Shown: one piece after another, positions 24,019 to 24,342 of the stretch | Numbering within the stretch: the first letter of the stretch is position 1 | Layout: each line of letters begins with the position of its first letter | From: Escherichia coli | Lineage (GTDB): Bacteria > Pseudomonadota > Gammaproteobacteria > Enterobacterales > Enterobacteriaceae | NCBI RefSeq assembly: GCF_003334255.1 | Contig: NZ_QOWU01000064.1 | Direction: 5' to 3' (one strand) | DNA: 26,066 nucleotides | Program-made: the position numbers and the translations under genes | The notes under the pieces: generated by a model | The model's input: only the letters and a program-made list of their open reading frames with translations | What the model was told of the DNA's origin: nothing | The model's database searches: none

Positions 24019-24342
24019 TTGCGTATTCTTTTTGTCTGTTCGCTATTGTTACTTTCTGGATGCAGCCATATGGCTAACGATAGCTGGAGCGGGCAGGATA
24101 AAGCTCAACACTTTATCGCCTCGGCGATGCTTTCCGCCGCCGGAAATGAATATTCACAGCATCAGGGGATGAGCCGGGATCGCAGTGCCATGTTTGGATT
24201 GATGTTCTCTGTCAGTTTGGGGGCGTCAAAAGAGCTTTGGGATAGCCGCCCCGAAGGGAGCGGCTGGAGCTGGAAGGATTTGGCCTGGGATGTCGCCGGT
24301 GCAAGCACCGGCTATACCGTCTGGCAACTGACCCGTCACTAA
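24019..24342 (+). CDS. yfiM: Small lipoprotein YfiM
   Basis: 107 aa from TTG 24019 ([18 protein letters not shown]...); GGAGG SD 7 nt upstream; lipobox LLSGC. The ORF-track start at 23998 lies inside the pssA terminator hairpin. Confidence 0.8.

Follow-up and report, generated by a model that had tools for sequence, protein, structure and literature searches.

Overlapping stop codons of the convergent genes yfiM and kgtP in Escherichia coli and other Enterobacteriaceae, and the 3' ends of their transcripts

Introduction

Two convergent genes whose stop codons overlap raise the question of where and how their messages end. In the window, by which we mean the whole stretch of 26,066 nucleotides of Escherichia coli DNA analysed here, yfiM on the plus strand and kgtP on the minus strand converge on the tetramer CTAA, in which the yfiM TAA occupies positions 24340-24342 (+) and the kgtP TAG positions 24339-24341 (-), giving a 4-nt overlap (Table 1). 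Since a spacer is absent, each message must end inside the opposing gene. We thus asked whether the overlap is genuine, how it is distributed in the family, and how the two transcripts are brought to an end.

Overlaps of this kind have been described as a class. Four base pairs is the modal overlap length, and CTAA, TTAA, CTAG and TTAG have been named as the convergent tetramers (Lillo & Krakauer 2007, PMC2174442). The same study counted 58 convergent overlaps in E. coli, with a predicted Rho-independent terminator in only 23 of the 116 genes concerned, and found TAG stops in excess among convergently overlapping genes. A TAA or TAG stop on the minus strand puts TA on the plus strand, so that a following A or G completes a stop codon for a plus-strand ORF in the right frame. 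Each stop thus supplies the TA of the stop opposite, and this accounts for 4 nt as the commonest convergent overlap. As for the ends of the messages, exonuclease trimming of Rho-dependent transcripts has been described as leading back to stem-loops, which form their stable 3' ends (Dar & Sorek 2018, PMC6061677, as related in PMC7815308).

Table 1. Features of the yfiM/kgtP locus in window coordinates
Feature	Position	Strand	Description	Basis
pssA intrinsic terminator	23978..24007	+	stem 23978-23998 and T-run	scan; published plus-strand ends 24002-24007 (PMC7815308, PMC10667835)
yfiM CDS	24019..24342	+	107-aa YfiM-family lipoprotein (PF10043/DUF2279), TTG start	lipobox LLSGC
CTAA tetramer	24339..24342	both	yfiM TAA and kgtP TAG	sequence, ORFs, RefSeq
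kgtP CDS	24339..25637	-	432-aa alpha-ketoglutarate permease (MFS transporter), ATG at 25637	
Hairpin 1	24295..24312	-	GCCGGUGCUUGCACCGGC, yfiM codons A93-G98	fold
Hairpin 2	24244..24265	-	AGCCGCUCCCUUCGGGGCGGCU, 9-bp GC-rich stem, U-tract absent	fold, conservation
Span of dominant kgtP 3' ends	24240..24288	-		PMC7815308 suppl. file 1; PMC10667835 Tables S3-S5
Candidate rut region, kgtP 3' UTR	24159..24308	-		C/G 1.7-2.25
Rho termination region peak	23633	-	antisense to pssA	PMC7815308 suppl. file 2
yfiM 3' tail inside kgtP CDS	24343..24359	+		PMC10667835 Table S7

Results

The yfiM/kgtP overlap is genuine

An earlier note on this DNA had named the two genes, placed them and read both stop codons. 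All of this proved correct against the sequence, the open reading frames and the RefSeq annotation, and its claim of zero intergenic space is borne out by the overlapping stops. Indeed, in a K-12-like E. coli locus that is 100% identical to the window (L001), RefSeq/PGAP places yfiM at 2620-2943 (+) and kgtP at 2940-4238 (-), which is the identical 4-nt overlap. Several K-12-like chromosomes are 100% identical over 901 nt, and a divergent E. coli genome shows the same overlap as the K-12-like annotation. The locus was found in 5426 of 5426 complete E. coli genomes, with 80% or more of the 901-nt query covered in 5423 of them, and in the three annotated E. coli regions examined the yfiM stop was identical and the overlap intact wherever an IS element was absent.

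The two reading frames are genuine protein-coding genes on opposite strands. YfiM (PF10043) has 414 homologues, and KgtP, annotated as alpha-ketoglutarate permease, is 84-100% identical across the loci; the C-terminus of each protein falls in one alignment column across genera. Wherever the stops overlap they share the central TA of CTAA, TTAA, CTAG or TTAG, and all four of these legal tetramers occur, with zero illegal ones. The idea that an error of annotation or sequencing produced one of the stops, and that the genes lack a true overlap, which the earlier note had named as what could overturn its reading, is already refuted by the universal presence of the locus in complete E. coli genomes, the aligned C-termini and the tetramers, and can be dismissed as virtually impossible because the same junction is seen in dozens of genera. 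The overlap is thus genuine, and it is an ordinary, already documented arrangement.

Two E. coli strains carry mobile elements at or near the locus. In strain Z1323MEC0002 (L003 1729-2997), an IS600 lies exactly at the yfiM/kgtP junction, which places the genes 1.27 kb apart, and KgtP has lost two residues and ends at a new TGA; this insertion is natural evidence that the overlap is dispensable. In strain 20AH011 (L002 3547-3901), an IS3-family transposase lies about 300 nt upstream of kgtP, in place of the K-12 rrnG 5S rRNA gene, and the kgtP-rrnG region is therefore variable among E. coli strains. In the window itself, the stretch between kgtP and rrfG (25805-25951, +) holds a 20-codon ORF, MEVGKLGKPYPLLNLAYVGV, with its ATG at 25818, its TAA at 25878-25880 and a strong SD, TAAGGAGG. 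It is absent from the RefSeq table examined, and it could be a small-protein gene already known, possibly yfiS. The ORF is followed by the rrnG terminator hairpin at 25927-25946. A plus-strand Term-seq 3' end was reported at this terminator in M63 (2726060, window 25951; PMC7815308), so the rrnG terminator seems to work in both directions.

Conservation of the junction in the Enterobacteriaceae

We then scanned genomes with the YfiM alignment, taking one genome per species, and analysed the best 80 of 199 genome matches, all of which were Enterobacteriaceae. In 71 of these best 80 loci kgtP comes after yfiM, with a 4-nt overlap in 49 and with the stops 1-3 nt apart in 22. The earlier note had proposed the conservation of the overlap in other Enterobacteriaceae as a check on its reading, and the answer is thus positive (49/71 with overlap, 22/71 with a gap of 1-3 nt). 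The tetramers of the 49 overlapping loci are CTAA (17), TTAA (17), CTAG (8) and TTAG (7). This group includes Escherichia, Citrobacter, Kosakonia, Enterobacter, Lelliottia, Phytobacter, Franconibacter and Salmonella arizonae, and the group with a gap of 1-3 nt includes Klebsiella, Raoultella, Kluyvera, Pseudocitrobacter, Pluralibacter and Trabulsiella. Three further genomes showed a 4-nt overlap (Cronobacter and Buttiauxella) or a 4-nt gap (Shimwellia). Many contigs in the species scan end about 1.5-2 kb past yfiM, as expected if an rRNA operon lies behind kgtP, the arrangement found in E. coli.

At nine of the best 80 loci, kgtP is missing from this site. In 7 of them, yfiM converges on a DUF4385 (PF14328) gene, and with this partner a 4-nt stop/stop overlap (CTAG) is formed again in L068 (2818-3309) and L073, and a 5-nt gap is left in L061 (2830-3303). 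In L072, yfiM directly faces an rrn terminator, and in Cronobacter (L084 4240-4695) the DUF4385 gene comes right after kgtP. This points to either a gain or a loss of kgtP between two genes already tail to tail.

At this junction, the base that follows the TA on the plus strand is the complement of the wobble base in the last Leu codon of KgtP. This codon is CTT or CTC in every overlapping species and CTG or TTG in most species with separate stops, a few of which have CTT or CTC. As a class, such overlaps are no more than chance would give, and the excess over chance is the long persistence of this particular junction. An old, stable junction and a tight packing that recurs with different partners make a pattern that fits a neutral origin, and the overlap is ancient, of the commonest tail-to-tail stop/stop kind and most likely neutral in origin. 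The yfiM/kgtP locus shows all the tested features of the 4-nt convergent stop overlap, and its configuration is identical to the published class (PMC2174442), including the modal length, the TAG enrichment and the missing predicted intrinsic terminator. Nothing essential differs; what is added is a species-by-species record for one pair, and the formation by yfiM of the same overlap with another partner where kgtP is absent.

The kgtP message ends inside yfiM

A consensus scan for canonical terminators (GC-rich stem and U-run) found none within 300 nt of the junction on either strand, and its single terminator near yfiM is that of pssA, upstream. An Rfam scan of 22000-26066 at E<=1 returned three matches, namely 5S rRNA and two at chance level, with none at the junction or the hairpins. 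Whole-region folding was not significant on the minus strand (z -1.36) and gave no notable structure on the plus strand past the yfiM stop (z -0.11). The minus-strand RNA past the kgtP stop contains two strong hairpins, hairpins 1 and 2 (Table 1), neither of which has a U-run. The earlier note had seen no visible terminator for either gene. This stands for canonical intrinsic terminators only, on both strands; kgtP has a conserved U-tract-less stem-loop inside yfiM and a strong Rho dependence.

Bidirectional intrinsic terminators between convergent genes, reportedly described by Ju et al. in 2019, solve the same problem of ending two convergent units in little space. At the yfiM/kgtP junction, in contrast, there is neither a spacer nor a hairpin flanked by A-/T-runs, and no intrinsic or bidirectional terminator was found. 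The rrnG terminator in the same window (25923-25951) is of the bidirectional kind and carries a plus-strand 3' end, unlike the junction.

To place published 3' ends in the window, 2700109 was subtracted from MG1655 coordinates, as verified by the kgtP-internal 3' end annotated '157'. The same 'internal 157' entry anchored the 3' end at base 51 of the Term-seq 61-mers, and the growth condition of each end was assigned from its position in the three-tab supplementary file, not from tab headers. The dominant minus-strand ends, classed as 'antisense yfiM' (Adams et al. 2021, PMC7815308), lie at 2724366 in LB at OD 0.4 (window 24257, 82 nt past the kgtP stop), at 2724397 in LB at OD 2.0 (window 24288, 51 nt past the stop) and at 2724349 in M63 (window 24240, 99 nt past the stop). 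In addition, an SRPS study listed 3' ends at 2724348/9 as 'kgtP UTR-3', RNase II trimming from 2724345 to 2724348 (window 24236, start, to 24239, stop), and a 220-nt kgtP 3' UTR fragment (2724586 to 2724366) that was confirmed by northern blot and is degraded by PNPase (PMC10667835). The ends at 24240 and 24239 fall 4-5 nt after hairpin 2, and the RNase II trimming stop coincides with its foot. The LB OD 2.0 end at 24288 falls 7 nt after hairpin 1. A stable end 3' of a U-tract-less stem-loop together with an exonuclease stop was thus found, although the LB OD 0.4 end at 24257 does not fit, since it lies inside hairpin 2 and not after it. The statement of the earlier note that the 3' ends must lie inside the opposing gene is thus supported for kgtP, all three Term-seq ends being within yfiM; for yfiM it is consistent with the one end on record, in a published operon table at 24359.

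Inhibition of Rho with bicyclomycin revealed a minus-strand Rho region that peaks at 2723742 (window 23633), with a score of 18.97 (p 8.7e-91) and with upstream/downstream reads of 576/24 in untreated and 1045/826 in treated cells (PMC7815308 suppl. file 2). Read-through past kgtP therefore rises when Rho is inhibited, with the exact termination point below the resolution of a score built on 800-nt windows. The kgtP 3' UTR (minus-strand RNA 24308-24159) is C-rich and G-poor, and by its composition it is a possible Rho loading (rut) region; the C-rich bias follows from the Trp, Gly and Ser codons of yfiM. According to the published data, kgtP transcripts run antisense into yfiM, Rho blocks their further extension, and stable ends are found at or near stem-loops where RNase II stops.

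Two Term-seq 3' ends lie inside kgtP itself. One, at window 25480 (-), 157 nt after the ATG, was present under all three conditions and was scored as not Rho-dependent, and the other, at 2725142 (window 25033, -), was confined to M63. They may reflect premature termination or processing of kgtP.

Transcription and 3' end of yfiM

On the other strand, the T-run of the pssA terminator (to about 24007) abuts the yfiM SD, GGAGG at 24009-24013 (+), and the TTG start at 24019. Since this leaves no room for a promoter of its own, yfiM depends on read-through and must be transcribed only by read-through of the pssA terminator or from inside pssA. A Rho score of 3.05 is attached to the pssA terminator/yfiM start point, plus-strand reads across the pssA terminator are about 30 vs 179 per 800 nt, and minus-strand reads exceed plus-strand reads about 20-fold (576 vs 30 per 800 nt; PMC7815308). 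An operon table ends the trxC-yfiP-pka-pssA-yfiM unit at 2724468 (window 24359), 17 nt into kgtP (PMC10667835 Table S7). Folding of this tail gave no structure, and no hairpin that could serve yfiM was found embedded in the final 120 codons of kgtP (all |z| < 1.1). The Term-seq tables gave no 3' end for yfiM (PMC7815308), and neither yfiM nor kgtP is mentioned in the SMRT-Cappable-seq supplements. The antisense kgtP RNA beyond the yfiM stop is also C-rich.

Since the two transcripts overlap, the pair might be regarded as a regulatory excludon, kept because its convergent transcripts control each other by interference or by RNase III cleavage of the duplex, with kgtP read-through silencing yfiM or vice versa. 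Indeed, yfiM-kgtP is listed in the published E. coli excludome, among 165 convergent excludons found in at least half of 58 transcriptomes (ExcludonFinder, PMC12288877). At least 51-99 nt of yfiM are overlain by antisense kgtP transcripts, which reach over the whole gene and part of pssA when Rho is inhibited; the strong excess of minus-strand reads and the tight junction kept across the family point the same way. However, the overlap call is automatic for genes with overlapping CDSs, and neither reciprocal expression nor RNase III processing of the pair is reported in the literature searched. The junction also tolerates insertions, both the IS600 of one natural strain and engineered operons, deletion bias alone predicts the same tightness, and yfiM is equally tight on a different gene where kgtP is absent. 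As judged from published data, the likeness to convergent excludons (PMC12288877) lies in convergent neighbours with overlapping transcripts. This is the descriptive half of the definition only, mutually exclusive expression being its defining functional half, and the transcript overlap here follows automatically from the CDS overlap, unlike in functional excludons. We thus consider it unlikely that the arrangement is kept by mutual control of the two genes.

Hairpin 2 is conserved beyond the needs of the YfiM protein

Hairpin 2 covers yfiM codons S76-W83 (SRPxGSGW), 74-95 nt past the kgtP stop. We calculated the entropy at fourfold-degenerate yfiM sites in 65 species. It is typically 1.4-2.0 bits, and the minimum of the gene falls at hairpin 2, with 0.23 at G82 and 0.56 at R77. 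G82 is GGC in 63/65 species and R77 is CGC in 58/65, while G80 is confined to GGG or GGA (GGR) in 62/65; these three codons and the AGC codons of S76 and S81 make up the hairpin. In a 72-sequence alignment, 90.9% of the cells of its nine pairs are paired, vs 75% for hairpin 1. No pair of hairpin 2 showed a two-sided compensatory change in the 72 sequences, and shuffles gave the observed values. This absence of covariation is uninformative, since in every pair the wobble base faces a position that the protein sequence holds constant, and the support for hairpin 2 is thus conservation, not compensatory change.

As a null model, synonymous codons were resampled from each species' own usage. The mean minus-strand dG of hairpin 2 was -15.4 kcal/mol vs -6.1 expected (mean z -3.4), below the 5% level in 66 of 71 species. 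A sliding scan in 22 species found hairpin 2 to be the sole outlier along yfiM, with z -3.23 antisense and -2.65 sense, all other windows lying between -1.25 and +0.73. Hairpin 2 is thus conserved beyond the protein requirement. In the nine loci without kgtP, the peptide is kept and the hairpin is eroded in 6, in at least 4 lineages, with a mean dG of -8.9 vs -6.6 expected (z -0.74). The difference between loci with and without a kgtP neighbour gives a Mann-Whitney p of 1.9e-5, uncorrected for phylogeny. We propose that hairpin 2 is a stem-loop with a protective role at the 3' end of kgtP. Its conservation at synonymous sites and its link to kgtP appear to have gone unremarked in the literature searched; even so, this is one more case of a known kind, not a new kind.

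Hairpin 1 was also considered as a conserved element and was rejected. A stem with all 8 positions paired is limited to K-12-like E. coli (L001), L004, L006 and L047, and its wobble bases drift in other loci, even inside E. coli (L002).

Hairpin 2 might itself be a U-tract-less terminator of kgtP, rather than a barrier to exonucleases after Rho has acted. Its stem is stable and conserved, M63 3' ends adjoin it, and the trimming start at 24236 is 8 nt past the base of the stem, the usual distance of hairpin release. The sequence 3' of the hairpin is, however, AUCCCAAAG, with 1 U in 9 nt, and the terminator scan missed it. Furthermore, with bicyclomycin the downstream/upstream read ratio is 0.79 instead of 0.04, which means that hairpin 2 lets most polymerases through when Rho is blocked, and the dominant ends vary over three growth conditions, which fits processing better. 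Termination by the hairpin itself is thus improbable, and we retain its proposed role as a protective stem-loop.

The conservation could also be unrelated to kgtP and reflect a sense structure of yfiM, the codon context of the Trp-rich GSGWSW motif, or a DNA feature. The sense z is almost as strong as the antisense z, so that it is the purine pattern at G80 and the link to kgtP that assign the hairpin to the minus strand. The AGC of S84, outside the stem, is also nearly fixed, and R77 is CGT, a mismatch on the minus strand, in six species. Exceptions to the link occur in both directions: Buttiauxella has kgtP and the 4-nt overlap, yet its hairpin 2 is eroded, whereas three kgtP-less loci (L068, L073 and L079) retain the hairpin, as seen in Pseudescherichia, which lacks kgtP at the site. 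On the other hand, G80 is restricted to GGG and GGA, which give C-G and U-G pairs on the minus strand and pair only there, and an invariant U-G of the minus strand has only a mismatched A-C as its plus-strand counterpart. The independent erosion in kgtP-less lineages with the same peptide, and the experimental 3' ends and trimming stop at the foot of the hairpin on the minus strand, likewise argue for kgtP. A cause of the conservation that has nothing to do with kgtP therefore seems to us quite unlikely.

Discussion

Taken together, we consider it probable that the overlap is ancient and neutral, that kgtP is terminated by Rho with its ends set by exonucleases at stem-loops, and that yfiM ends diffusely. 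With nothing functional between the genes, the junction would stay at -4 to +3 nt, as in the 71 kgtP-adjacent loci. RNA polymerase passes the kgtP TAG into antisense yfiM, and as the ribosome leaves at the TAG, Rho may load on the C-rich untranslated RNA and would terminate transcription within the next few hundred nucleotides. The 3'-to-5' exonucleases would then shorten the RNA as far as hairpin 2, chiefly, or as far as hairpin 1 in K-12, and selection for a stable kgtP message may preserve hairpin 2 at the cost of yfiM codon choice. The small share of transcripts that reach yfiM by read-through would in turn enter antisense kgtP and probably end diffusely, via Rho and/or collision with polymerases of the much heavier kgtP transcription, without a dedicated conserved element.

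Of the features tested for a Rho-dependent 3' end that is protected by a stem-loop, kgtP shows the rise in read-through on Rho inhibition and the stable end beside a U-tract-less stem-loop with an exonuclease stop. With the type of Dar & Sorek, as far as it is related in PMC7815308, kgtP shares the bicyclomycin-sensitive read-through, the ends at U-tract-less hairpins, the RNase II stop and the PNPase fragment. In contrast to that account, the protective stem-loop here lies within the CDS of a convergent gene and is conserved family-wide at synonymous sites. A more speculative reading goes further: hairpin 2 might be a dedicated kgtP 3'-end element inside convergent yfiM, kept on synonymous sites while kgtP is the neighbour, that limits the antisense run into yfiM and couples alpha-ketoglutarate uptake and YfiM oppositely, which would make the pair a true excludon with a built-in boundary. 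We regard this as doubtful.

Annotation or published tables already contained the overlap of the genes, that of their transcripts and the 3' ends. By itself the overlap matters little, as it is annotated in every E. coli genome and its class was described in 2007. Two recent papers placed synthetic operons in what they call the 'yfiM-kgtP intergenic region', regarded as neutral and highly transcribed. This intergenic region does not exist, and an insertion must duplicate or alter a stop codon; insertions there also part kgtP from its 3' stem-loops, including one that appears to stabilise its message. For the family, the locus is a clean example in which the 3'-end structure of one gene constrains the synonymous sites of its convergent neighbour, and such a constraint has to be borne in mind in codon-based selection tests and in recoding projects.
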